Shown: piece after piece, positions 47,710-63,451 of the stretch | How positions within the stretch are numbered: position 1 is the stretch's first letter | Layout of the letters: every line of letters begins with the position of its first letter | Assembly: GCA_963749155.1 (NCBI GenBank) | Contig: CAVVLO010000002.1 | Location: 128,001 to 192,000 of the forward strand | Direction: 5' to 3' | DNA from: an uncultured Armatimonadia bacterium | GTDB taxonomy: Bacteria > Armatimonadota > Zipacnadia > CAVVLO01 | DNA: 64,000 bases | The notes under the pieces: generated by a model | Seen by the model: the letters and a program-made list of their open reading frames with translations, nothing else | What the model was told of the DNA's origin: nothing | Database searches by the model: none | Translations under genes and position numbers: made by a program

Positions 47710-49053
47710 TTACCAGAGCGAGGTCTCGTAACGATACTGCACTTCGGTCTGAGGCCGTTCGTCCTCAGGCGCTTCGACCTGAAGCATCAACCGATGCTTC
47801 GAGTCTTTGCTGCCGCCTAGTTGCAGGCCGAACTCCCAGTCTTCTTGGTCGTTGTACTCGTTCTGCTCTAGTTGGATTGTCAGTTGGAACAGCGAACTCC
47901 GAGCCAGCTCGAGTCGTGAGGTTAGCAGGTTGTCAGACTGCGCCCACTCGCCCGAGGCTGTGGCATCAATCCCAAACACGTTGAACAGGCGCAGTTTGCC
48001 TGTATAGGTGTCCTCGACCAGGTCGGCATAAGGACTCTCGTCGCGCTGGAAGCCCAGCTCCAGACGCCCTTTCTCCAGTTCAAACCGGTAGTCCCGGCGC
48101 TCGAGGCCGGCACTGGCCAGGGTGTCTTTCAGAGCCACCTCGGCGTTGAAGTCCAGCCCCAGCAAGGAAGTTCGTCCACCATAGCGCGCTTTGCGTTCTG
48201 TCTGGCTCTGCGCGAGCTCGCCCTGGAGCAACAGGTCAGAAACTGGTTTTGTATCCAGCTTCACCTTATAGGTAGGTGAACCAAATACAGAACCTATACT
48301 TGCGTCCCATCCCAGCGATTCGCTACCGCGCGGTGTATAAGCGAGTTCCCAGAGCTCGCCGCGCACAGAGTCACGCTGGGCGAGGACCGCAATTACTCCA
48401 TCAGCGGTCCGGCGATTATAGGCTGCGCCCAGCAACTGACTGCCCTGGAGCTGACTGTAAGTTAGTCCTGTATTGGACCGGCTGCTTTTTTGCATATAAG
48501 CAAAGCTCTTTTCAATCTTGGTCGAGTTACTCCACCTTGCATCAAAGCTCTTGCCTTGGCCAAGGCTCGAAGTCAGAGTAAAGACATCGCTGCCACTGGC
48601 GGCTGGACTTCCCCGGAATCCCAGTTTCGTTCTGCTGCCAAGTGCCAGTTCACTGGACCAGGTTTCAGTTGTGCTTGCGCCATGACCTTGCAAGGTGCGC
48701 GTCAGGTTGAATTGCTGTTTGGGCAGCGAAAGCTGCAGCGTCCGAGTGTCTTCGCCCTCTTCCCGGTAACCAAGCACCGAAGAGCCATACGGGTGGAAAA
48801 CAAGCCCCAGTGATTCAGGCTGGCTTGCCCCTGTAAGCTCGCTAGTAGCCCCTTCTCGCTCGAAGCTCCAGTTCGTATCCAGTTCGAAGGAGCCAGTATT
48901 CAGTTGAAACTGGGTGGTGGCCTTATCGCTGGTATAGTTTTGAACCGAGGCGGCAAGCCCAGTTGGCGCTCCGGACGGTTCATCCGAGAAGCCTGGTAAG
49001 GCCAGGTAGCATACTAGTACTAGAATAAGAAGCCCTTTGGTCATCTTGCTCAC
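47710..49053 (-). CDS. Secreted beta-strand-rich protein, possible outer-membrane beta-barrel
   Basis: Signal peptide, alternating polar/hydrophobic strands, C-terminal EVQYRYETSLW. Confidence 0.5.
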   Translation of the reverse strand: MSKMTKGLLILVLVCYLALPGFSDEPSGAPTGLAASVQNYTSDKATTQFQLNTGSFELDTNWSFEREGATSELTGASQPESLGLVFHPYGSSVLGYREEGEDTRTLQLSLPKQQFNLTRTLQGHGASTTETWSSELALGSRTKLGFRGSPAASGSDVFTLTSSLGQGKSFDARWSNSTKIEKSFAYMQKSSRSNTGLTYSQLQGSQLLGAAYNRRTADGVIAVLAQRDSVRGELWELAYTPRGSESLGWDASIGSVFGSPTYKVKLDTKPVSDLLLQGELAQSQTERKARYGGRTSLLGLDFNAEVALKDTLASAGLERRDYRFELEKGRLELGFQRDESPYADLVEDTYTGKLRLFNVFGIDATASGEWAQSDNLLTSRLELARSSLFQLTIQLEQNEYNDQEDWEFGLQLGGSKDSKHRLMLQVEAPEDERPQTEVQYRYETSLW

Positions 49054-49139: not shown

Positions 49140-50558
49140 CTAGCCTGCGGGTTGCTGCTCCTTGTCACTGTGCTTGACTGGCAACCAAACGCTGAAAGTT
49201 GAGCCTTCCCCTTCTTTGCTGGATAAGGCCAGGCGACCTCCATGATGCTCCACCAGTTTTTTTACAAGGGGCAATCCAAGACCGGTGCCTTTCTTCTTTC
49301 TGGCGCTTTCGGTACGGAAATAGGGTTCGAAGACTTTCGCCATATCGCTTTCGCCAATCCCAAATCCCTGGTCCTCGACCTCTACACGCGCCTCGTCATC
49401 CTCCAGGGCAAGTCGGACCGTCACGGTCGTATTGCTGGGCGAATACTTGATAGCATTAGTGACAAGGTTCGTGATAACGAGTTGGATACGAGGCTCATCG
49501 GCTTCGATATGAAGCCCCTTCGCCTCTGCAGCCACTTCGTAGACAAGCTCATGTTCGTTGGCATAAAGGCCGTGACGTTCTACGAAATGGTCCAGTAAAG
49601 CGTCCAGGTCGAAAGCCGTTATGTTCAGTCTAAGAGACTTGCCCGATTCGATCTGGGACAGGTCCAGGAACCCATTAATCATCTGGGTCAGGCGGTCGAC
49701 CTCGTCCATCATCATCTGAAGGAACTGGGCCTGACGCGCGCCTTCGAGCCGCTGGTCCAAAATGCTGGAAGCTACAAACTTGAGGGTCGTAAGGGGGCTC
49801 TTCAGCTCATGCGACACGAAGGAAACAGCCTCACTCTTCATTCGTGAAAGCCGCTCCAGCTCCGTGACATCCGTGAAGACAACAACTCGTCCAAGCCAGG
49901 AGCCATTGCTTCCCCCGATATCCTCAACGCCTGCCTGGACGAAGGTCTCGCCAGTCTGGAGAACCCGGTTTTCCGGCAAGTTGCCTGTAGCAATTACTGT
50001 GAGTAGCTCCTTGTCTTTGATCGATTCTTGTGCAACAGGACGACCAGCCTTCGGTGGGTCAATGCCAAGCAAGCGACAGGCAAAATCGTTGGCTATTACC
50101 ATTTGGTTCGCAGAGTTGGTAACCACAAGCCCATCGGGCATCAGGTCTACGATTGCCTCGAGCTGGGTCTCCAGCAATCTAGCCCTGGCAGCGATCCGGG
50201 CGCGCTCGGCTTCCAGCTCGATGCGTTGCTTTTCCATACTGCTCTTGGCGGCCTGGTAAGCGGCAGTCGCCTGGTTGACGAGACTACGCACCTCGGCATC
50301 AGACGTCAAAGTGAAGACTGCGCGCCCCCCTTCCCCATGACGTTCCAGCAAGCCAGCGGCCACCAGTTCACTGGCTTCGAGGTCAAGCTGGGCAGGCTCG
50401 GCGCCTATCCAGATAGCCAAGGATTCGGCGGTGTCTATTGTGCCCGGATTAGCATCCAGAAAAGCTACCAACTCGAGTTTGACCAGCGAGTCGAGATGCT
50501 CTTCCAGGAATTGGGCTATCTCGCTTGCTTTTTCACTTTTGCGTGATTTGGCTGTCAT
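49140..50558 (-). CDS. Cytoplasmic histidine kinase: wHTH-like - coiled coil - PAS - HisKA - HATPase
   Basis: VSHELKSPL, NLVTNAIKYS, DQGFGI, FEPYFR and GTGLGL motifs; no TM segment. Confidence 0.92.
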   Translation of the reverse strand: MTAKSRKSEKASEIAQFLEEHLDSLVKLELVAFLDANPGTIDTAESLAIWIGAEPAQLDLEASELVAAGLLERHGEGGRAVFTLTSDAEVRSLVNQATAAYQAAKSSMEKQRIELEAERARIAARARLLETQLEAIVDLMPDGLVVTNSANQMVIANDFACRLLGIDPPKAGRPVAQESIKDKELLTVIATGNLPENRVLQTGETFVQAGVEDIGGSNGSWLGRVVVFTDVTELERLSRMKSEAVSFVSHELKSPLTTLKFVASSILDQRLEGARQAQFLQMMMDEVDRLTQMINGFLDLSQIESGKSLRLNITAFDLDALLDHFVERHGLYANEHELVYEVAAEAKGLHIEADEPRIQLVITNLVTNAIKYSPSNTTVTVRLALEDDEARVEVEDQGFGIGESDMAKVFEPYFRTESARKKKGTGLGLPLVKKLVEHHGGRLALSSKEGEGSTFSVWLPVKHSDKEQQPAG

Positions 50559-50559
50559 A

Positions 50560-51936
50560 TCAGGCAGGGAGTATCCTGACTCCTTCATTACTGATCTCAA
50601 ACTGCCGAACGCGCATATCCGCGGCACTGGTGCGCATCTTGGGTATGGAAAGCTGTCGCTTTATCACACCTTGCTCCTCCACCAGACGCATTTCGAGGAT
50701 AGTATCTATCGCCATTCCCGCTAGCTCATAGCCGCGGTCTTCCCCACCGAAATTTTCATGGGTCAGTATCGAGGTAATGCCTTGCTGCTCGAAAGTGCTC
50801 ACCAGGCTGTAAATCCAGTTGCGAAGCTCGGTGGGAGAGGCAGTGTTGGCCTCGATTACATTGAGTCCGTCCACTACTACTCGTTTGATTTCAAGTTCGC
50901 GTACAGAATCCTGGATCTCCCAGAAGAGCCGGTTCACATTGAGATCAGCCGAGGGAGCCGCCAAAACGCGGAATTTCTCACTTTTGATAAAGTCTCGCAG
51001 ATAACCGAATCCCTCAGCCATCTGGAATATCTTGTATAACCGCTCATCCAGGGAGACAAACAGGCAAGACTCTTCCTGCTGGACGCCCTCATGCAGAAAT
51101 TGCAAGCCCAGACTGCTCTTGCCTGCACCAGGGGGGCCACTCACGAGGCCACAGAAACCTTGTATTAGGCCCCCGCTCAGCATCTCGTCCAGCCCAGCGC
51201 AGCCTGTCGAGACGCGCTCCAGCGGATTGCCGATGATCTCTTCGCGAGGGGGTTGGGGATTGGGATAGACAACAAGCCCCGAATCGGAGAAATCAAGGGG
51301 ATGTTTGCCCGAAATGTGCTCCTGTCCACGCGTCTTTACAATCTCGACGCACCGCTGCCGCCTCATCCGTTTGGGACTCGGATCATAACTCACCACGAGT
51401 ACGGCATCGGCGGTATAAGCCTCAAAAGAGATTGGCGAATCGTGTTCAAGTGAGAGTTCCTTGGTAAGGAAAGCTGTGAGATTGCGCTTTTTGAAGCCAT
51501 TGAGGAAGCTGTTCATTATCTCGCGCAATCTTACTGTCTCGAGTTCCAGCCGTTCAAAATGAGTGACGCTATCCACCAGGATGCGTCGAGCGCCAATCTC
51601 ATCCATCACGACATCCAGCATACCGCCTGGTTCCTGGATTTGTTCGTTGAAGACTTCAGGTGATGTACTGATGACCCTGAGTTTATCTTCGTCCTCAAGC
51701 GCCCTCAGATCCCAGCCGAACTGGGCCGCATCACGATAAAGCTGTTCAGGAAACTGCTCGAAAGTCACGATGATGCCAGGTTCGTCCAGCTCGGAGGCGC
51801 CGTGATAGACAAATTGTAGACCGAGGGTTGTCTTGCCGGTGCCTGGCGCGCCTTCTATCAAGAGGCTATGCCCCTCGATTAGCCCACCTAAAAATAGTTC
51901 GTCCAGGCCTTTGATGCCCAGGGGTAGCTTGCCCAT
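50560..51936 (-). CDS. KaiC-family two-domain ATPase
   Basis: GIKGLDEL..GAPGTGKT..VDSV..KTRG; second domain STGCAGLDEMLSGG..GPPGAGKS..KMR. Confidence 0.92.
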   Translation of the reverse strand: MGKLPLGIKGLDELFLGGLIEGHSLLIEGAPGTGKTTLGLQFVYHGASELDEPGIIVTFEQFPEQLYRDAAQFGWDLRALEDEDKLRVISTSPEVFNEQIQEPGGMLDVVMDEIGARRILVDSVTHFERLELETVRLREIMNSFLNGFKKRNLTAFLTKELSLEHDSPISFEAYTADAVLVVSYDPSPKRMRRQRCVEIVKTRGQEHISGKHPLDFSDSGLVVYPNPQPPREEIIGNPLERVSTGCAGLDEMLSGGLIQGFCGLVSGPPGAGKSSLGLQFLHEGVQQEESCLFVSLDERLYKIFQMAEGFGYLRDFIKSEKFRVLAAPSADLNVNRLFWEIQDSVRELEIKRVVVDGLNVIEANTASPTELRNWIYSLVSTFEQQGITSILTHENFGGEDRGYELAGMAIDTILEMRLVEEQGVIKRQLSIPKMRTSAADMRVRQFEISNEGVRILPA

Positions 51937-51949
51937 GCAGTTTCTTCTC

Positions 51950-52282
51950 CTATTTCCTGCCGTTGAACTCCAACAACTTGGCCAAACGCAGCCTGCCGTC
52001 AGAATCCAGGAGCTGGGCGAGAAACTCTCCAACCAGCTCTCGGGCCTCGCGGTCGCGTGTATAACGGAAAACTGGATTATCCGAAGCCGAACACTGCAGC
52101 AACCCGGTAGAGGCCATCTGCTCCAGCACGGATTCCAGCAACTCGGGATTGCGTCCTATCCAGTGCGCCAAGCCCCGGCTGGTATCCATAGCCGAAGGAT
52201 TGTGATGGAAGTATGCAAGCACTTCCACCGCAATCACCGAACTACCAATCTGCCCAACATACTGAGCGAGTTGTTCTTTCAT
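51950..52282 (-). CDS. Small wHTH-like protein (KaiC-associated)
   Basis: YFHHNPSAMDTSRGLAHWIGR...GLL; homologous by eye to the kinase N-domain. Confidence 0.75.
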   Translation of the reverse strand: MKEQLAQYVGQIGSSVIAVEVLAYFHHNPSAMDTSRGLAHWIGRNPELLESVLEQMASTGLLQCSASDNPVFRYTRDREARELVGEFLAQLLDSDGRLRLAKLLEFNGRK

Positions 52283-52339
52283 AAGACATACTTCCTGCAT
52301 TGGTCCTGCTCCATCCAGGCTGGCCTGCGACCTTCCAAC

Positions 52340-52630
52340 CTAGCGCGCTGCCAACACCGTCGAGACTAGCTGGCGCAGCGTTTTATCCTTGGTATAGCTA
52401 TAAATCGGAGGCCTGGTAACACCGGCCGTTGCTCTTATTTGTACGAGGCCCTTCTCTGCCAGAAGCTCCAGTTCATCGCGCACTGACTGCTCGCTTTGGC
52501 CTAGTCTTACAGCGATGCCCCGAGCATAATCCATCGTGAAGGGATTACGCTCAAAGAAATTCAGGACGCCCACACACCCCTGGGCGTCATCCTGCTCAAG
52601 CCAGTTTCTGAGTGTCTCCTCGGTCATCAA
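52340..52630 (-). CDS. Small wHTH-like protein (paralogue)
   Basis: FFERNPFTMDYARGIAVRLGQ...LELLAEKGLV. Confidence 0.75.
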   Translation of the reverse strand: MMTEETLRNWLEQDDAQGCVGVLNFFERNPFTMDYARGIAVRLGQSEQSVRDELELLAEKGLVQIRATAGVTRPPIYSYTKDKTLRQLVSTVLAAR

Positions 52631-53946
52631 GACTCCCGTTCACCGCCGGCCTCGTGGCGAGGCAGACGCGCAACCAGTGCGTCCAGAGCATCAGCGTGCT
52701 GGGCTTCCAAAGGGTACACGATGAAGGTGCATTCTTCATCGCCGACTGCCTGGCAAGCCATCTCTTCACAATTGCAGGGGGCGCCGGTAAGCAGTTCTGC
52801 CGTACGCGACAAAAATCCCCGAGCGAAATCATCTGCCTGACGTCCAGCAGGAGTCATGGCCTGGAAAAGTCCGGTGCCAGCAAAACGCAGTTCTCCAGAG
52901 GCCTCCTGAGACTCCGCAAGCCTGAGTTCGCCAAGGCCCTGGAGCTGGAAGGCCTTCAGTCGCTCGCCCAGGCTGCCACCGAGTTTCTCAGCCAGTCGCC
53001 CGCCCGTATTATACATCGCGAGGGTCGACTCTCTCATCTGGTCGCCAAGGTCTTTCAGGATCTCGCCCACGAGCTGCCTGGAGACGGAACTTGCCTTGAG
53101 TTGGGCCTGAGCGCGTTCGAGTCGCCTGGCCATCTCATTTAGCGTGATAGCGAGCAAGCCAAGTTCATCTTTGGTATGGACAGTTGCGCGACGTGAAAGT
53201 TTCCCCGAAGCCAGTTGCTCGGCCACCGTAGACAGCTCCATAATGCGAGCCGAGATGCCTTTTGAGACCCAGATGCCCGCCCCAAGCGCAAGGAACACTG
53301 TCAAGATTAGCGCTGTAAGCACCAGAGAGTTGGCCCTGCCTGTAGCCTGGTCTATCTGCTCACGCGAGAGCTTCCTTGCCTGGGCTACTAACTGCTGAGC
53401 CTCAAGAGCCGCGCTGCGGAAGGCGGCTGCGCGCCGGCTGTTGGCGCCACTAAGCTCTGTGGCTCGAGTAGCCACAGAGTGCGCCTGATCGAGTATGCCG
53501 AGTAGTGCTGCAACGAAATCATCAACCTGGGGAGTTGCGGTTCCCACTCCCACATCCAGTGGAGAGATATTACTAAGCGAAAAGCCTGCGCGCTGGGCTT
53601 CCTTTTGCAGTTCGTCAGACTTCGAACTCCACTCGCGAGCCAGTTCGGCCAGCTCCTGAGGAGGAGCCTCCTGAGGAGCTTCAGCAATCAGGGCTGTCCG
53701 TTCACTTAGTCCACCCAGCTCTGCCAGCAACTCGAAAAGGCTTGACTGACTTTGGATACGACTCAGCGAACCCGAAATAAACCACAGCAAGACACCAAAG
53801 ACGCCACAGACCAGCAGAGGCACCGCAATTATCTTGGTGCCTACACCGAACCGCACCGTCATCACCTGGCTTGCCAGACGACTCAGTGGATCATGCCGGG
53901 CCATCGTTTCCGGCTCACTCCCTGTAGTAGTCGGCGTTGACGACAA
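52627..53946 (-). CDS. 2-TM sensor - HAMP - V4R protein
   Basis: TM, helical extracytoplasmic domain, TM, HAMP (GKLSRR..DELGLLAITLNEMA), and C-terminal GFL...CEEMACQAVGDEECTFIV (V4R). Confidence 0.8.
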   Translation of the reverse strand: MSSTPTTTGSEPETMARHDPLSRLASQVMTVRFGVGTKIIAVPLLVCGVFGVLLWFISGSLSRIQSQSSLFELLAELGGLSERTALIAEAPQEAPPQELAELAREWSSKSDELQKEAQRAGFSLSNISPLDVGVGTATPQVDDFVAALLGILDQAHSVATRATELSGANSRRAAAFRSAALEAQQLVAQARKLSREQIDQATGRANSLVLTALILTVFLALGAGIWVSKGISARIMELSTVAEQLASGKLSRRATVHTKDELGLLAITLNEMARRLERAQAQLKASSVSRQLVGEILKDLGDQMRESTLAMYNTGGRLAEKLGGSLGERLKAFQLQGLGELRLAESQEASGELRFAGTGLFQAMTPAGRQADDFARGFLSRTAELLTGAPCNCEEMACQAVGDEECTFIVYPLEAQHADALDALVARLPRHEAGGERES

Positions 53947-54652
53947 GCCCCTGCTGGGGTTTCAGGGCAAAGGGGAAGGCCCGGGGGTCGAAAGGCTGGC
54001 CACGCACCTTGGAAACTCGCAGATTGCGTTTGGGCACGCCGCCTCTTTCTTCCGCCACAAAGAGTTCTGCGATCACGTCATAAGCATTGGTCAGGCCATA
54101 AGTCTCCACAGGCCCCATTGCCGAGGAGAGATACAAGTCTAATAGCACTACGTTATCTTCGCGCAGCAACCTGTTCTTGTCGTAGATAAGGTTCACAAAG
54201 TCTCGCGGCGAGTAGTTGACCATAACTGATGCCAGGGAATCTATGACGACTCGACAGGGCCTGCCTGCTTTATCAACCGCCGATTTGATCACGTAGAGCA
54301 GTTCCTGCTGGTCGGCCTTGTCCGAGACGAAATAGCCCCCAGAGCGCTGCTGTGAGAAAGCATCCAGCACCAGCAGCTTGCCCTCACGCTCATAAGGATC
54401 TGTACCGAAACCGAATTTTTTAAGGGCGCGCCGTATCCTGTCCGGCGACTCGTCGCAAGCAACAAAGACAGCCGACTCTCTGGCCCGCAAGCCCTCGACG
54501 ATGAATTGATAACCGAAGGTAGACTTGCCGGCTCCGCTGTCCCCAGTCACTTGCCAGGCGGTCCCGAAGGGAATCGGCTCGCTAAGTATGCCCTCAAGCG
54601 GTGTGAAACGTACTCCCTCTTCGCCCTGTGGCGTGGCTCGCTCCTCGCTCAC
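53915..54652 (-). CDS. Single-domain KaiC/RAD55-family ATPase
   Basis: GDSGAGKST, RVVIDSL and LRVSKVRG motifs. Confidence 0.9.
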   Translation of the reverse strand: MSEERATPQGEEGVRFTPLEGILSEPIPFGTAWQVTGDSGAGKSTFGYQFIVEGLRARESAVFVACDESPDRIRRALKKFGFGTDPYEREGKLLVLDAFSQQRSGGYFVSDKADQQELLYVIKSAVDKAGRPCRVVIDSLASVMVNYSPRDFVNLIYDKNRLLREDNVVLLDLYLSSAMGPVETYGLTNAYDVIAELFVAEERGGVPKRNLRVSKVRGQPFDPRAFPFALKPQQGLVVNADYYRE

Positions 54653-56062
54653 TTAGCTCATCTCCTCGCCACCGGGCACGTAGTACACCCGGATGCCTTC
54701 CTGGGTGATGGCCATCCTGTGCTCGCCCATCACGTGGCGCGTAGCGCGCAGTTTATAAACCTCAAGGCTGCGCCGACGTTTGGAATCCTGCTGCTGCACT
54801 CTCAGCACCACGACCCCGTCTACCAGTGATTCCTCAGTCTTAAAATTGCTAAGGTCGAGGGCGCCAGAGGTCGTTGGTGACACCAGGACTGATGTTGACT
54901 TGCAGGACTTTAACAGGTCGACAAGCTGAGCCAGCTTCTCGGCTACCAGCCCATCGTCCTCCGAGATCGAGTGCAGCATCGAGGCAACCGAATCCACTGC
55001 CACTCGCTTTGCGCCAGTGGTCTCAAGCAGCTCGCGCACTTCAAGCAGATGCTTGTCGACGTTCAGGTCTACAATGGGAAAAGACCGGAGCACCAGCTTG
55101 CCTTCCTCTACTAGCTGTCTCACAGGCCAGCCAAAGCTCTCGCCGAGTTCGACAAGTTGCCCTTCGGCCTCTTCATAGAGCAGCATCAAACCGACTTCGC
55201 CAAATTCCAGAGCGCCTCTTGTCAGATATTGCAGAGAGAGAATCGTCTTGCCAGTGCCAGCGGCTCCCGACAGCAGAGTTACAGCCCCCTGGGGGAAGCC
55301 TCCCCCAAGCAGTCTGTCTATCTCCGACAGGCCAAAAGCGCATCGGACGTCACTCTTAAGCACGGCTGGCTGGCCACTGGTCAGTTTTCGCGGGAAGACC
55401 TGCAGCCCGTCAGGATCTATCTCATACGAATGCCGGCCTGGCATAAAACCCGAACCGCGCATCTTGTGGACCGACAACCAGCGTCCCCCGCCTCGGGTCT
55501 GCTCGTCATTCTCGAGGTACAGCACCCCGTCAGCGATGGCAAATTCCGGCTCGGATTCGAGTTGATCAGCGGTATATTCACCAATCAGGAAGGTGGTGCA
55601 TTGCCAGCCGGCCATCTTCACCGCCAGGTCGTAGACGAACTTCCGGAACTCGCTAACCGAGGGCGCCAAGTCGTGGATAGCCTTGAAGCTATCGATTACC
55701 ACAACGGCAGGCCGGATCTGCTTTACCATCTCGATAAGCCGAGATTGGGCATCTCCGAGCCCTTCCTGGCGCACAATAGCGCCAATATCATTGAAAAATA
55801 CGCTTGTACCGACTTTATCCTGGTCGAAGAAAGTGAAGCCTTGCTGATAGCGCAGCACCTTGACCGAGGGCTCGGACAAGGTAGTGACATACATCGCTTT
55901 GCGCTCTTCGCTGGCGTTGTGGAACATCATCTCTTGAGCCAGGACAGTCTTCCCGGTACCGGGGCTTCCAGCTATCACGTTAACCGAATAGGCAGGAAAA
56001 CCTCCGCTGAGGATACGATCCAGATTCGGGATGCCTGTGGGCAGTCGCTCCAACTCGCACAC
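54653..56062 (-). CDS. KaiC-family two-domain ATPase
   Basis: PTGIPNLDRILSGG, GSPGTGKT, IDSF, KMRG; second domain GAAGTGKT, YEE, VDSV, KLRA. Confidence 0.93.
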   Translation of the reverse strand: MCELERLPTGIPNLDRILSGGFPAYSVNVIAGSPGTGKTVLAQEMMFHNASEERKAMYVTTLSEPSVKVLRYQQGFTFFDQDKVGTSVFFNDIGAIVRQEGLGDAQSRLIEMVKQIRPAVVVIDSFKAIHDLAPSVSEFRKFVYDLAVKMAGWQCTTFLIGEYTADQLESEPEFAIADGVLYLENDEQTRGGGRWLSVHKMRGSGFMPGRHSYEIDPDGLQVFPRKLTSGQPAVLKSDVRCAFGLSEIDRLLGGGFPQGAVTLLSGAAGTGKTILSLQYLTRGALEFGEVGLMLLYEEAEGQLVELGESFGWPVRQLVEEGKLVLRSFPIVDLNVDKHLLEVRELLETTGAKRVAVDSVASMLHSISEDDGLVAEKLAQLVDLLKSCKSTSVLVSPTTSGALDLSNFKTEESLVDGVVVLRVQQQDSKRRRSLEVYKLRATRHVMGEHRMAITQEGIRVYYVPGGEEMS

Positions 56063-56108
56063 CTTCCCACACTTCGGCCCAGGCTACAAACCTTGGCCGC
56101 GACGGTGT

Positions 56109-56478
56109 TCAGTCTCCGTTGAGCTGATGCTCGGCCTGTTCCACGTCGGGTCTAAGATGCTTGACCACGACCTGACCGGTCAGAGTGGAGACATTCGAAA
56201 ATCAGCCGGGTGAATAGAGTCTTAAAAGCCTCTTTAAGTCGCTCGGGCGGCACCTCATCGAAGACGCTCACGTCTTCGGGAAGACGCACCCCTTCGTCAG
56301 TGACCTCGATGTATTCCAGGAAATGGTACTCCCCCGCCGCATCGAAAATGGCTGCCTCAATCATCGTCTGCAGGGCCACTGGCCCGAGCATACTGACTGC
56401 TTTGCGCCATATCGAGCGGAGCACCTCGGAATACACCTCGAGGATCTGCCGCTGGCTTAGTTCAGTCTGGCCGTTCAC
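56109..56478 (-). CDS. Small helical KaiC-associated protein (frameshift near 56199)
   Basis: Removing one T from ATTTTCG gives ...RLISNVSTLTGQVVVKHLRPDVEQAEHQLNGD*, matching the LTG motif of paralogue 57919-58260. Confidence 0.7.
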
Positions 56479-56490
56479 GGCGTCTACCCC

Positions 56491-57901
56491 TCACTCCCAC
56501 TGGATTTCGACAGGGTCAGCCAGTACAAGCCCCTGGTTGCTAATACAGAGCTCTCTAGCCTGTCGAGAGTGATCGCTAGCATGCATCTTGAGTATGAGCA
56601 ACGCTTTCTTCATCGCGCCCTGGTCATAGGTGTACTGAAGCATCAGCACGTTGTCCACCAGGGTGAAAAGCCCTTGTTCGGAAAGCGAACGCGCTCCAAA
56701 CAACTCGGGTACATTGTCCACCAACAAGGTCGTCACGCCCTGCCTTGCCAGGCGACGAAGCAAGGAGTGGAAGAAACCTTGCGCATTGATACTCGCATCG
56801 AAGGCTTGCCGCAGCTCGCTTACGCTATCGAGTACGAGTCTTTTGGTGCCAGTCCGTTGCACCTTCGTCAGCAGGTCGGTAGTAAAACGTTCTGGCTCCA
56901 GGCTGCGCGGAGAGAGAGGCCAAATCTCGACCTGATTCCCCTTCAGCGATACCCCTGCGCCTGCCGAAGTGCCGCGAAGCTCAGCTTCCGACTGACGGAA
57001 ACTCACTAACAATCCTGGGTCACTAGCAGCTTGTCCGGCTGCAAGGAAGCTCATCGCGACAAGGGACTTCCCCACGCCGCTCGGGCCGATGACAAGGGTG
57101 CTGGTGCCGCGCGGGATGCCTCCCCCACAAGCCTCATCAAGCCCCCTTACCTGGAGGCCAACTCGATCAGCTACGGATTCGACCGAATTCTCACAGATAA
57201 AATGCTCGCTTTCCAGATTCGGGAACAGCCGCAAGCCATCAGTGGTGATTTCGAAATAATGCTTGCCAATCTCGAAATCACTACCGCGCATCTTGACGAC
57301 TTCAAGAGAACGCCGCCGCCGCGCGCCATTGCCTTCAAAAGTCAGCTCGAGTACGCCATCGGCGATGGCGAATATCGACTCGGTGCGCATCTCTTCTTCT
57401 GTGTATTCGCCAATCAGGAAAGTAGTGCATTCCCAGGCCGACAGTTTCAGCGCCAAATCAAAACCAAACTTGCGGACTTCCTTGTTGTCGGTCGCAAGAT
57501 CGTTAATGGCTTTGAAAGAGTCAATACAAACGAGCCCTGGCTGCGTCTTGCGCACCTGATGCAGAATCTGCTGGAGCGTCTCGTTTAGACCTTTCTCACG
57601 GATCAGATGGGCCAGGTCCAGATAGACAACACTATCATTGAAACGGTCGATGTTGAAGTAGGAAAAACGTGACTGATAGCGCAACAGCTTGAGCGCTGGC
57701 TCGGACAAAGTGGTCATGTAGATGGCCTTGAAATTGACCGAAGCATTGTAAAACAGACTTTGATGAACCAGGGTAGTTTTTCCGCCGCCAGGCCTTCCGC
57801 TGATTATGTTGACCGAATACAGCGGAAACCCACCGTGCAGGATTTTGTCCAACCCCGCATTGCCCGTAGCCAGCTTGGGTAGCCCAGGTATAGGGGATCA
57901 C
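56491..57901 (-). CDS. KaiC-family two-domain ATPase (probable frameshift just after the start)
   Basis: In-frame upstream PKLATGNAGLDKILHGG; GRPGGGKT and GPSGVGKS. The GTG at 57901 is reached by removing one C from CCCC. Confidence 0.9.
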
Positions 57902-57918
57902 TCCCGGCGCGGAAGCGC

Positions 57919-58260
57919 TTAATCTGGCCCGCCAGGCACGTTGTCCATAATACGCCTGGCCAACGCGTTGCCTGTAAGGCGAGCAATAATGGCGAAGATA
58001 TTACCTATGACTTCGGTCAGGGCTTGCCTGACTTCAACCGGGTCTAACTCGGCACTTCGGTTTTTCAACTCGCCAAGGTCGAGTCCGGTAGGCTTGGCCT
58101 GCACCAGTTCTGCCAAAGGATATTCTTCGGCGGTGCGGTAAAGGGCGCTCGAGCAAATCTCCTCGACTGCTGCTGTGCCAAGAGTCGGGAGAATCTTGTC
58201 CCAGATCGCGCCCAAAATATCTTCGTAAATTTCGACGGTCTGCTGGACGATATCCACCAT
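57919..58260 (-). CDS. Small helical KaiC-associated protein
   Basis: GAGG RBS; EIYEDILGAIWDK..LG..A...YP....RLTGNAL; paralogue of 56109-56478. Confidence 0.75.
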   Translation of the reverse strand: MVDIVQQTVEIYEDILGAIWDKILPTLGTAAVEEICSSALYRTAEEYPLAELVQAKPTGLDLGELKNRSAELDPVEVRQALTEVIGNIFAIIARLTGNALARRIMDNVPGGPD

Positions 58261-59660: not shown

Positions 59661-59678
59661 TAGACGATGCAGTCTCTG

Positions 59679-59792
59679 CCCTTATCTTCCGCAGAGCTTC
59701 CGCCTGCGCTGGAGTTAGCACCGTCCCCTCGGATAATCCGGGGGGGTTGCTGCGGCTTCACAGGGCCAGTCCCTCAGCCGCTCTCGATAAGG
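59679..59792 (-). ncRNA. SAM-I (S-box) riboswitch
   Basis: Minus strand CCTTATCGAGAGCGGCTGAGGGACTGGCCCTGTGAAGCCGCAGCAACC...GGTGCTAACTCC...GAAGATAAGG, upstream of the SAM synthetase. Confidence 0.96.
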
Positions 59793-59888
59793 TATATCGG
59801 CGGGATTCTACCAACCTTGAGAGGTAAAGGTCAACTTATCTTTATTTTTTCTGCGGCTCAGTTGTCTGGACTGGTCCTTTATCGGACA

Positions 59889-61817
59889 ATGAAGGCAACA
59901 ATGAAGAATAACACTTGGCGATTATTACTAACTGGCCTGTTGATTTGGCTAGCCAGTTACGGGTGGCTGACCTCGCCTCGGGCAGGCAGACTGGGCGAAT
60001 TGGAGCTTGACCTGCTGGCTCATCGTTTCAACTTGCGTGGGCCCAGGCCTGTCCCCTCCGGCATACTGCTTATTGGCTACGATGCCTCTGATGATGCTGA
60101 TCCGGATTTCGTCAGGCAGTTAGGAGAAGTGACCCGGCTGGCCCTTGAAGCTGGTTGCAAGGCAGTTGCGCTGGATCGTACAGTCGAGACCCCACGAGAT
60201 GATTTCTCCAGTGAGCTTGGAGATCTCGATACATCTCGCCTGGTACTGGTGTGCCGGGAATCTGGCGAGGGCATACCTGTTGAGACTGTTCCGAAGCAAC
60301 CTTGTGAAATCCAGGTGGCAGAAGGCGCCAGAGTGCCAGAAGTTCGGGCTTTGGCTCTGCCAACCCCAGCCCTGCTTCTGAGGGCGGGGGCAGTAGGAGC
60401 GGCTGACTTGATGGTGGCCTCACCTCTTGAGGCCTGGAAACTGCCCTTCGTGGTGAAACAGAAAGCAGGTCCGCGCCGGTTTGTCGAAGAGACTAGCGAA
60501 GAGGGCAAACGCCGCAAAATCGAACGCACTCCTTCCCTGCTGGTGCCTGGTTTGCCTGTAGCCTTGCTTGCCGCAGGGCAGCCAATTACCAAACTGGAGG
60601 TAAGCTCAGGGCAGGCCAAACTCGGGGAGAATCTCACAATCCCCCTGAACAAGGGGGGCGAGTTCGCCGTTAATTACTATGGACCAGGAGAGAGCCTGCC
60701 CAAGGTAGCCTTCAGCGATGTACTGCATGGGCTAGTGCCTCCTGAGCGTCTTCAAGGCCGATTCTGTATCATCGGCGCCACCGATTTTGCCCTTGGCGAC
60801 GTTGTGTGGAATCCCTTTTCAGGCGCTTTTCCCGGTCCTGAATTGATGCTAACTGCCACAGCCAATCTGATGGAGGGACGAGTGGCTCGATTGCTCAGCT
60901 CTCGAAGCGCAGCCCTGACAGCCTTTGCCTATACACTGGTCTTGCTTGGTGTTTTCCTTCTTTTTGACGGGCTTTTTATGCCTTTGCTGCTAGGGTTTGC
61001 GAGCTGGTTGTTTGCCGGTATGCTCTCAGAATTGGTTTTTGTCAGGCAAGACTTGATTGTCCAAATGGTTAGCCTGCTTGCATATGGGCTAGTATTGTTT
61101 ATTGCCCTGGCAGGACTGCGAGGATGGGAACTCGGCCGAGAACGTCAGCAGCTTGCCCGGGCGCTCGAACTCTATGTGCCCCTGACTTCGAGCCAGGATC
61201 TGGCTCAACTGAACGAGCCCCTCGGTCTGGGCGAAAGGCGTGTAATCACCGTTATGTTTTGCGATTTGCGCCACTTTACAGCCAATACGGCTTCAATGGC
61301 GCCGGAAGAGACAGTGAGTTTTCTTAACAGGTACTTCGCCGAGATGGCTCGTTTGGTCAATACTCATTTTGGAGTCGTAGACAAGTTTATCGGCGATGGC
61401 TTTATGGCAGTTTTTGGAGCACCACTTGTGGACTCCGAGCACCGCAGGCATGCCCTGCAATGCAGCCTGAGTTTGCTTGCGGAGCTACCCAAACTGGCCT
61501 TCGAGTATGCAGGCACTCCGCTTGGCGAATTGGAAGTCGCTATTGGCCTTGATACAGGTGAGGCGCTTGTGGGACGAATTGGTTCGCCTACCCTGCACCA
61601 GTTCACGGTGATAGGCGCGCCTGCCAACCTGGCAGCTCACCTTCAGCAAGCGGCTGGTAAAGCCAATCTGCCCTTGCTGGCCAGTGCCCGAGTGCTTGCA
61701 GGACTTGAGCAGGAATATGACACAGAGCTTTTTGCGGAGGCGGGATTGGAAGAAGAACTACAAGGCGCCTGTTTCTGGGTAAAAGGTAAGGCCAGGGCGC
61801 CAGGCAAGGAGGATTAG
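59889..61817 (+). CDS. CHASE2 + class III adenylate/guanylate cyclase
   Basis: CHASE2 (RGPRP..ILLIGYD..NYYGP..IIGAT..PGPE), 3 TM helices, VMFCDLRHFT, DKFIGDGFMAVFGAP and TVIGAPANLAAHLQ. The ORF-track start at 59667 overlaps the riboswitch and is unlikely. Confidence 0.9.
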   Translation: MKATMKNNTWRLLLTGLLIWLASYGWLTSPRAGRLGELELDLLAHRFNLRGPRPVPSGILLIGYDASDDADPDFVRQLGEVTRLALEAGCKAVALDRTVETPRDDFSSELGDLDTSRLVLVCRESGEGIPVETVPKQPCEIQVAEGARVPEVRALALPTPALLLRAGAVGAADLMVASPLEAWKLPFVVKQKAGPRRFVEETSEEGKRRKIERTPSLLVPGLPVALLAAGQPITKLEVSSGQAKLGENLTIPLNKGGEFAVNYYGPGESLPKVAFSDVLHGLVPPERLQGRFCIIGATDFALGDVVWNPFSGAFPGPELMLTATANLMEGRVARLLSSRSAALTAFAYTLVLLGVFLLFDGLFMPLLLGFASWLFAGMLSELVFVRQDLIVQMVSLLAYGLVLFIALAGLRGWELGRERQQLARALELYVPLTSSQDLAQLNEPLGLGERRVITVMFCDLRHFTANTASMAPEETVSFLNRYFAEMARLVNTHFGVVDKFIGDGFMAVFGAPLVDSEHRRHALQCSLSLLAELPKLAFEYAGTPLGELEVAIGLDTGEALVGRIGSPTLHQFTVIGAPANLAAHLQQAAGKANLPLLASARVLAGLEQEYDTELFAEAGLEEELQGACFWVKGKARAPGKED

Positions 61818-61819
61818 CA

Positions 61820-63451
61820 GTGGAAGGACGCTCCTATGAAAACCAACTCTACGCGCTGCTTGAAGCGAGTCTGCTGGTCAGCGCAGAGCTGGAACTAAGC
61901 CCACTGCTTGCACTGCTTACCAAGCTTGCGGCCAAAGTTGTAGACGCCGAAGCGGCTTCTTTGTTGCTGATTGATCCTGCGGCACAAGAGCTCGAATTCG
62001 CCGTTGCGCTTGGCGAGAAAGGCGCGGAAGCTGCAAGGCATCGTATTAAGGTAGGCCAGGGAGTCGCCGGTTGGGTAGCCGCCACCGGGCAATCTGCCAA
62101 TGTCGCCGATGCGGCAGCCGATTCACGCTTCACTGGCTTGATAGACCAGGAAACCGGGTTCCATACGCGCAACTTGCTGGCCGTCCCAATGAAATATCAT
62201 GACGAGTTGGTTGGCGTTATCGAGTCTATGAACAAGCGCTCTGGAGATGGCTTCTCAAAGGATGATCAGAGCGTACTGGAAGCTTTCGCGGCCCAGGCGG
62301 CTGTAGCAGTGAAGAACGCTCGTTATCTTGAGCTCCTCCAGGCCCGACTTGGCGAAGTGAATCAGGAAGCAGTGCGCCAGGCAGAACAGGCTCGGGCTGG
62401 TCAGCATTTGCTTCGTGAGGTAATGAACGCACTGGCTGATGCTGTGTGGGTCACAGACCAGGCTGCCAATGTCTGGGATGCCAATCCGGCAGCAGATTTG
62501 CTTCTGCGACAGAGACTGGGCACAAGTCTGGGAAAACCTTTGGGTGATTTACTTGGGTGCGAGCCTGTTGCCGAACTAATAAAACGCTTCTCTGCTGGCG
62601 AAGAGAGCCCTGAAGCAGTGGAAGTCAAGCTGACCATCGAAGACGAACCGTGCGTGCTTCAACTGCGCGCAGGCAAGCTCCCTCCTGTAAAAACCCTGGT
62701 CGCCAGTTATGTATTTGTAGCAACCGATATCACCACGCTGAAAGACCTGGCGCAGATGAAAAGTGATTTTGTGGGCTATGTCTCTCACGAGATGAAGACG
62801 CCGCTTACAAACATAATTGGCTTTACCTCAACGCTCATTAGATTGAAAGAGAGACTTGATTCCGTTCAGCAGGAGGAGTTTCTGACAACCATCGAGTCTG
62901 AAGCTCATCGCCTGGTGAGGCTTATCAATGATTTTCTCGATGTGACGAAGCTTGAAGCGGGTAAAGCGCTGACACTTATAGTTACAGAAGAAAATCCAGA
63001 ACGGCTGACACGCAAGTCGCTAGCCCCACTGGAGAAGCTGTCAGACAACCATCAACTGGTTTGGGACTTTCCAGAATCTGCAACCTCCCTCGAATGCGAT
63101 GCCGATAAAGTGGCACAGATTCTGGTTAACCTGGTGAGCAACGCTATCAAATATTCACCTAACGGAGGCGAGATAGGCATACGCCTTGCGCAGGAGGGCG
63201 ATTGCACTCGCTGGCAGATATCAGATCAGGGGCTGGGAATGACCCCTGAAGAACAGGGGCTGCTCTTCCAGCAATTTAGTCGTTTGCCCCAGAAAGGCAC
63301 GCGCAAGATAAAGGGTACAGGACTTGGACTTTACATCACACGGCGGCTGATTGAGGCTCACCGTGGTAGAATATGGGTCGAGAGCACACCGGGAGAAGGT
63401 TCTACTTTCTCCTTCGAGTTGCCAAACAGGGCAACGGATACAGCCAAATAA
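61820..63451 (+). CDS. GAF-PAS histidine kinase
   Basis: GQGVAGWVA..DQETGFHTRNLLAVP (GAF); VSHEMKTPL, NLVSNAIKYSP and GTGLGL. Confidence 0.92.
   Translation: MEGRSYENQLYALLEASLLVSAELELSPLLALLTKLAAKVVDAEAASLLLIDPAAQELEFAVALGEKGAEAARHRIKVGQGVAGWVAATGQSANVADAAADSRFTGLIDQETGFHTRNLLAVPMKYHDELVGVIESMNKRSGDGFSKDDQSVLEAFAAQAAVAVKNARYLELLQARLGEVNQEAVRQAEQARAGQHLLREVMNALADAVWVTDQAANVWDANPAADLLLRQRLGTSLGKPLGDLLGCEPVAELIKRFSAGEESPEAVEVKLTIEDEPCVLQLRAGKLPPVKTLVASYVFVATDITTLKDLAQMKSDFVGYVSHEMKTPLTNIIGFTSTLIRLKERLDSVQQEEFLTTIESEAHRLVRLINDFLDVTKLEAGKALTLIVTEENPERLTRKSLAPLEKLSDNHQLVWDFPESATSLECDADKVAQILVNLVSNAIKYSPNGGEIGIRLAQEGDCTRWQISDQGLGMTPEEQGLLFQQFSRLPQKGTRKIKGTGLGLYITRRLIEAHRGRIWVESTPGEGSTFSFELPNRATDTAK

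Follow-up and report, generated by a model that had tools for sequence, protein, structure and literature searches.

A winged-helix domain encoded beside one clade of KaiC-like ATPases: a candidate partner module shared by free proteins, histidine kinases, cyclases and MerR-type regulators

In the genome of an uncultured Armatimonadia bacterium (GenBank assembly GCA_963749155.1), we analyzed a stretch of 64,000 nucleotides (nt) of contig CAVVLO010000002.1 (positions 128,001 to 192,000, hereafter the window). A tightly packed gene series on its minus strand (49140-58260) includes the gene of a KaiC-like ATPase, KaiC-like 1 (50560-51936), which is flanked by three copies of a small domain, labeled X here. 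Two copies are free proteins and the third forms the N-terminus of a histidine kinase. X has a winged-helix fold, and all the KaiC-like ATPases examined that are encoded next to it belong to a single clade. We give about even chances to the reading that X is a protein-interaction module, the partner of this one subfamily of KaiC-like ATPases, and that it no longer bears the hallmarks of contact with DNA. X appears to be an undescribed domain, as its fold, family and bacterial setting appear new within the literature searched; no description of X with KaiC was found there, though an earlier mention in the 2017 mBio paper on KaiC hubs is possible.

Three copies of one domain around KaiC-like 1

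The genes and the domain concerned are the following:
49140..50558, minus strand: cytoplasmic histidine kinase with X, a long helix, PAS, HisKA and HATPase_c, 472 amino acids (aa) from ATG 50558
50253..50522 (about), minus strand: winged-helix domain X as N-terminal part of the kinase, matched by the own-genome profile at E 9.4e-36
50560..51936, minus strand: KaiC-like 1, double-domain ATPase of 458 aa, matching PF06745 twice (E 8.8e-95)
51950..52300, minus strand: free X protein of 116 aa (110 aa from the second ATG), assigned by BLASTP and AlphaFold2 (AF2)
52340..52630, minus strand: free X protein of 95/96 aa, assigned by BLASTP, with sub-threshold MarR_2 and CggR_N matches

The first-pass annotation of this DNA had proposed that one domain resembling a winged helix-turn-helix occurs here twice alone and once at the N-terminus of a kinase, with all three copies around one KaiC gene, and this arrangement was borne out. 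BLASTP aligned the 116-aa with the 96-aa protein at E 8e-16 (37% identity over 75 aa), the kinase with the 116-aa protein at E 4e-13 (32% over 87 aa), and the kinase with the 96-aa protein at E 9e-7 (27% over 74 aa). The three-way alignment holds 14 invariant columns, including N-P, D, G, G-L and D..R.LV, all of them among the residues cited in the first-pass annotation.

The kinase is a two-component histidine kinase by its Pfam matches to HisKA (E 1.1e-14) and HATPase_c (E 3.1e-31), and its PAS match is weak. The most likely start is ATG 50558, which gives 472 aa instead of 495, the frame being open to 50627; in the context TGAtATG this start lies 1 nt past the stop of KaiC-like 1. Between the 116-aa gene and the start of KaiC-like 1 there is a gap of 13 nt containing GGAG. 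For the 96-aa gene, ATG 52627 is the probable start; it overlaps the stop of the gene upstream, which encodes a HAMP-V4R protein.

A fourth X copy (110 aa) was found elsewhere in the same genome, directly upstream of another KaiC-like gene. The latter (L006 6482-7886, G000 contig C1, minus strand) is split into open reading frames (ORFs) of 328 aa and 135 aa in different frames, either by a frameshift or by an assembly error. In the family tree, the two free copies of the window and the fourth copy cluster loosely (weak support, 71/75). Such grouping would be expected if the shared domain were the product of local gene duplication with no functional tie to KaiC or to the kinase, an explanation that we regard as very improbable. 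It does not fit the kinase-borne X, which groups not with its neighbours but with same-class kinase-fused X domains of other families (89/80), nor the X-KaiC pairing, which recurs in numerous families across the phylum and in two further architectures. The genome of the window is the sole member of its family among the genomes surveyed. KaiC relatives at 38-40% identity are assigned to Armatimonadota in their source records, which is suggestive of the phylum. Relatives of the 116-aa protein were not found in a search of metagenome contigs, and the sole match in a search of genome contigs with P0004 was spurious (33 residues, in an actinobacterial record) and was discarded.

KaiC-like 1 itself is a KaiC-family ATPase and not a circadian clock KaiC. 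It has two RecA-like KaiC domains with P-loops (GAPGTGKT and GPPGAGKS in the translation) and aligns end to end with solved KaiC at E 8.9e-64. The solved chain carries an S-T pair that we take to be the clock phosphorylation pair S431/T432. In the alignment with 8zn5, the solved I-S-T-I-T corresponds to A-G-M-A-I in KaiC-like 1, so that G and M replace the S-T pair; the protein also ends at the core, without a C-terminal tail. It scored 198.6 bits with the NCBIfam model circ_KaiC, against a cut-off of 546, and KaiB (PF07689) had no match in the genome of the window at E<=0.001. The Glu-Glu pair of the first domain is E-Q in KaiC-like 1 and that of the second is D-E, while most of the 62 aligned relatives keep E-E; by these residues, a lowered ATPase activity is possible.

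Fold, architectures and DNA-contact features of X

The AF2 model of the 116-aa protein (predicted local distance difference test, pLDDT, 87.0) shows the order of helices and strands of the ArsR/MarR repressors: H2-18, H22-33, E38-40, H41-48, H52-65, E68-70, E77-80, H84-97 and H100-114. Residues 1-150 of the kinase (pLDDT 87.8) give the same order and then continue into a single 52-residue helix. Both models support the winged-helix fold suspected in the first reading. With VIA-align, the best match of the 116-aa model was CzrA (Z 10.9, root-mean-square deviation 3.1 over 93 residues), and SmtB reached Z 10.1; the best Foldseek matches were members of the MarR family, at E 1.2e-3 and weaker. 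By all three methods, X belongs at the level of fold to the ArsR/MarR-type winged helices.

Membership of the MarR family itself (PF01047 / PF12802) was not found. No Pfam or NCBIfam model reached its threshold on X, and the weak matches, HTH_Cmi2_C, MarR_2 and CggR_N, are all winged-helix models. The 96-aa protein scored 20.7 bits with MarR_2, against a cut-off of 27, and the Pfam scan gave no MarR match for the 116-aa protein. Among 61 X members, matches at E<=0.01 were obtained for HVO_A0114 in 19, for MarR_2 in 14 and for PF01047 in 1. Literature on Cmi2, sought to account for the weak HTH_Cmi2_C match, yielded unrelated work only. Work on CapK/CapS, which concerns anti-sigma-type kinases, was set aside as not relevant.

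Searched with the 116-aa protein as single query, homologues numbered just 4; an X profile run against 1.84 billion cluster representatives gave 753 matches at E<=1e-3 and 107 at E<=1e-10. Most of these are free proteins of 90-170 aa. Outside the phylum, the Atlas matches point to Chloroflexota and Actinomycetota. Of 16 long matches scanned, 9, plus one truncated, carry X N-terminal to a PAS-HisKA-HATPase kinase, and in others X forms the N-terminus of a GAF-PAS-cyclase or of a BON protein. Genomes of the phylum also encode proteins of 225-236 aa with an N-terminal MerR_1 domain and X at the C-terminus (3/3 tested by Pfam), and each of these three genes lies directly upstream of a KaiC-like gene. 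The C-terminal part of MerR-type regulators receives the effector, and X therefore occupies the input position in the MerR fusions, as it does in kinases and cyclases. Proteins of 139-144 aa encoded upstream of the KaiCs of family f39 were ruled out as X members (hhalign probability 0.1%).

Residues expected to contact DNA were compared between 44 X domains and the aligned MarR cores of 30 genuine MarRs; the latter were drawn from 24 related genomes because the genome of the window has no canonical MarR. In the N-terminal half of the recognition helix, the net charge was -1.5 in X (n=44) and +0.67 in MarR (n=30), with 2.14 acidic residues in X vs 0.03 in the controls. The wing of X has 1.89 basic residues, compared with 4.53 Lys/Arg in the controls. 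The MarR controls show a Ser/Thr-rich start of the recognition helix and a D-x-R-R motif in the wing, and both are missing in X. X thus has neither the polar or basic helix start nor the basic wing with which MarR proteins bind DNA, and this composition argues against a classical DNA contact.

These data also bear on the explanation that X is an ordinary ArsR/MarR-type repressor that autoregulates the KaiC operon, possibly modulated by KaiC, with the N-domain of the kinase as a relic or a DNA tether. We consider this unlikely. Its best structural matches are DNA-binding proteins (CzrA, SmtB and, in Foldseek at about 1e-3, MarR), sub-threshold MarR_2 and HVO_A0114 matches recur among the members as given above, and autoregulators typically lie just before the gene that they regulate, as X does. 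Against it stand the acidic helix start and the wing poor in basic residues, the fusion of X to MerR proteins, which already have a bona fide DNA-binding domain in front of it, and its N-terminal, input-type place in kinases and cyclases. Start and stop codons of X and KaiC genes, moreover, overlap so frequently that stoichiometric co-production of the two proteins is suggested.

Link between X and one KaiC clade

Across 401 genomes of the phylum, X (E<=1e-5) was found in 139 and a KaiC-like ATPase (E<=1e-30) in 209. The ATPase was present in 124/139 X-positive genomes vs 85/262 X-negative ones. Forty X loci were then sampled by taxonomic spread and contig span, before their context was seen and with frame lengths already known. 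Of the 26 free X genes in this sample, 13 are immediately followed on the same strand by a gene for a double-domain KaiC, whose start often overlaps the stop of the X gene. None of the 14 fused X genes (11 kinase, 2 cyclase, 1 BON) has a KaiC gene in the surrounding stretch examined. In a cross-match of X and KaiC across the survey, which is a lower bound with 150 of 441 KaiC matches listed, at least 44 of 146 X genes have a KaiC match <=1.5 kb downstream among the matches listed, namely 42/96 short frames and 2/50 long ones.

The pairing is specific for one type of KaiC. A tree of 44 KaiC N-domains contains an X-associated clade of 25 rows (support 95/89) that includes KaiC-like 1, and the 19 rows known to be X-adjacent when the tree was built (13 free-X neighbours, KaiC-like 1, the KaiC of the fourth copy and 4 MerR-X neighbours) all fall within it. 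On inspection, an X-bearing protein was found directly upstream of 2 of the clade's 4 other rows, so that all 21 X-adjacent KaiCs examined belong to this clade. None of the 19 KaiCs outside it is X-adjacent; they come from X-less genomes or stand apart from X, and include the other three paralogs of the window. The KaiCs of family f39 also lie inside the clade, as sister to the free-X-adjacent KaiCs (99/96), and f39 genomes have no X besides that of the kinase.

Two further observations concern individual KaiCs. The remaining 2 other rows are KaiC paralogs of family f20 (about 585 aa; L135 4008-8001, L136 4038-7999) with no X upstream; they are directly followed by an ORF of 730-745 aa, open at the fetched end, whose later part matches a histidine-kinase-type ATPase profile. 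In related families, X-adjacent KaiCs carry a C-terminal solute-binding-protein domain, SBP_bac_1/8, at E 1e-16 to 1e-20 (L038 5311-7947, L043 8192-10831, L047 8396-10999), and frames of about 880 aa occur likewise in L039, L044, L045, L048, L049 and L077. This fusion of KaiC and SBP, about 870-880 aa long, suggests direct ligand input to the ATPase.

Clade specificity also bears on the explanation that X is a dimerisation or ligand-sensing module, in which free X would heterodimerise with the X of the kinase with a dominant-negative or activating effect, and KaiC would be a remodelling ATPase or protein kinase acting on X and no docking platform. Domains of the ArsR/MarR type are obligate dimers through their N- and C-terminal helices, both of which are present in the 116-aa model; histidine kinases are dimeric, and the kinase X runs on into the long helix; and free and fused X occur together in single genomes (e.g. 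G008, G092 and G243). This explanation gives no account of why X adjacency is limited to one KaiC clade or why MerR-X stands beside KaiC, and the f39 genomes, which have a kinase-fused X and no free copy, also speak against it. We judge it improbable, and slightly more so than the repressor.

For direct docking, which the first-pass annotation had proposed to examine by structure prediction, one complex was predicted, between a KaiC-like 1 monomer (63-row alignment) and the 116-aa X protein (61-row alignment). The score was 0.60 (runs 0.53, 0.61 and 0.60), and the best of 3 controls scored 0.00. At least 67% of the contacts recur between runs, and the partner has a pLDDT of at least 71. In the benchmark, 116 of 157 solved complexes passed the mark, as did 2 of 215 mismatches, and scores of 0.60 or under were obtained for 18 of the 157 solved complexes and both passing mismatches. 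With synteny as a prior, the predicted score is mildly supportive of docking between KaiC and X.

Several observations weigh against X as a KaiC partner that no longer binds DNA. The prediction just described falls in the band of weak support, returned no interface and used KaiC as a monomer only. Because related genomes are not independent, the Fisher p-value for co-occurrence of X and KaiC overstates the association. Fifteen X-positive genomes have no KaiC at E<=1e-30; among them, five genomes of family f3 (G027, G219, G227, G317 and G332), 81-95% complete, have strong X matches, so that X can persist without KaiC, and three f3 copies without KaiC nest within the clade of KaiC-adjacent X. 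The other 13 of the 26 sampled free X genes have no KaiC within about 8 kb. The kinase-fused X genes, 0/11 near KaiC, have unrelated and variable neighbours, and the arrangement in the window, with the kinase beside KaiC, is therefore unusual. One clade of free X (families f33 and f30; L063-L067, L062) has no KaiC nearby and sits in a pyrF/DUF4132/DUF6259 context, although the genomes concerned also encode MerR-X beside KaiC. The fold of X is that of the DNA-binding ArsR/SmtB/MarR repressors, so X may yet bind DNA. The whole-domain net charge, finally, differs little between X (-1.9) and MarR (-1.1), the helix start and the wing alone separating the two.

Along the last-mentioned loci (L063-L067, L062), the conserved row consists of a DUF4132/DUF7737 protein, orotidine monophosphate (OMP) decarboxylase (pyrF), X and a DUF6259 protein.

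Taken with these points, the proposal that the domain is a KaiC-docking module rather than a DNA binder held in part. Gene adjacency, co-occurrence, restriction to one KaiC clade, the absence of MarR-type DNA-contact features and the effector position in MerR fusions speak for it; the weak complex prediction, the kinase-fused copies away from KaiC and at least 5 genomes with strong X and no KaiC-like ATPase at the threshold used stand against it. We consider docking of X on KaiC plausible, and infer from the above both that X binds KaiC directly and that it has lost DNA binding. Competition of free X with the kinase X for KaiC, also proposed at first, is speculative.

Gene context, candidate mechanism and known systems

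Upstream of the X genes, the series continues with the following genes:
52627..53946, minus strand: HAMP and V4R protein of 439 aa (Pfam HAMP E 1.4e-10, V4R E 2.6e-9)
53915..54652, minus strand: single-domain KaiC-like protein of 245 aa (PF06745 E 1.2e-30), outside the X-associated clade
54653..56062, minus strand: KaiC-like 2, double-domain ATPase of 469 aa (PF06745 E 6.6e-84), outside the X-associated clade
56152..56478, minus strand: small protein of 108 aa, not related to X and placed in a second family by BLASTP with the 113-aa protein (E 4e-11)
56491..57852, minus strand: KaiC-like 3, double-domain ATPase of 453 aa (NCBIfam KaiC models, E 2.6e-53), outside the X-associated clade
57919..58260, minus strand: small protein of 113 aa, paralog of the 108-aa protein (BLASTP E 4e-11)

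The HAMP-V4R protein is likely the upstream sensor of the operon. The 108-aa and 113-aa paralogs flank KaiC-like 3 and have no match in Pfam or NCBIfam; the 108-aa protein was ruled out as an X member (hhalign probability 0.3%), and the pair may represent a second kind of small KaiC-associated partner. The cluster contains no gene for a response regulator. The kinase gene is followed directly by one for a 447-aa protein (47710-49053, minus strand) with a hydrophobic N-terminus and no Pfam match. Beside the cluster, two divergent ORFs of 716 aa and 543 aa occupy 59667-63451 on the plus strand; by eye only, the former ends like a nucleotide cyclase and the latter resembles a GAF-PAS histidine kinase.

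As a possible mechanism, the HAMP-V4R sensor, the KaiC-like paralogs, the two free X proteins, KaiC-like 1 and the X-PAS kinase would be co-transcribed and in part translationally coupled. The X domains would read the state of the KaiC-like ring, which might be nucleotide-bound or conformational, as the clock phosphorylation sites are absent. Through its own X, the kinase would come under the control of KaiC, with the signal passing along the long signalling helix, and the free X proteins might occupy the same or neighbouring sites on the ring as adaptors or buffers. In other genomes, X could couple the same KaiC subfamily to cyclases and to MerR-type transcription factors. A broader proposal, which we put forward tentatively and hold to be less probable than a partner role as such, is that X does for a widespread non-circadian subfamily of KaiC what KaiB and the N-domain of SasA do in the clock; it would be a universal plug that relays the state of the ring to kinases, cyclases and MerR factors, with free X tuning access.

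We know of no established partners and outputs for most KaiC homologues outside cyanobacteria. A domain that is tied to one KaiC clade and occurs free or fused to kinases, cyclases and MerR offers a concrete and testable scheme of how KaiC signalling outside the clock may be wired in bacteria. If the partner reading is true, X would add to the winged helices that have exchanged DNA binding for protein docking; if the plug proposal is true, bacteria would have a KaiC-centred signalling system resting on a winged helix that has given up binding to DNA. Since sensor, ATPase, free adaptors and kinase stand in a single operon, the window is the most useful site for a test.

Among known systems, the ArsR/SmtB and MarR repressors share with X the order of secondary-structure elements and the overall fold. 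X differs from them in staying below the Pfam cut-offs, in the acidic helix start, in lacking D-x-R-R and in being fused to kinases, cyclases and MerR. The Rio2 kinase likewise has an N-terminal winged helix on a kinase (VIA-align Z 9.5 over 90 residues), but this protein kinase is of eukaryotic type and has no connection to KaiC, and the resemblance is one of fold only.

Archaeal KaiC-like ATPases have reportedly been described as signal-transduction hubs by Makarova, Galperin and Koonin in mBio in 2017. As far as this proposal is conveyed where it is cited in PMC5847659, the genes of KaiC ATPases there accompany those of small adaptors and of diverse signalling domains for input and output, as in the present system; unlike the hubs so conveyed, the present system is bacterial, and a specific domain linked to a single KaiC clade is its adaptor.

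A close parallel is that of KaiB and SasA, whose interplay on KaiC is treated in PMC3161067 and in bioRxiv 10.1101/2020.06.17.158394. There, as with X, a small domain that also exists on its own serves as N-terminal input to a histidine kinase, and both forms are tied to a KaiC-type double RecA ATPase. Clock KaiC has the S-T pair and a C-terminal tail, while KaiC-like 1 has G and M and no tail. Binding to the ring and rivalry of free and fused forms belong to KaiB and SasA; for X, docking is weakly predicted at the monomer level. The parallel with KaiB and SasA drawn in the first-pass annotation therefore holds for the logic only, because KaiB and SasA use a thioredoxin-like fold (PF07689), whereas X is a winged helix in a genome without KaiB.

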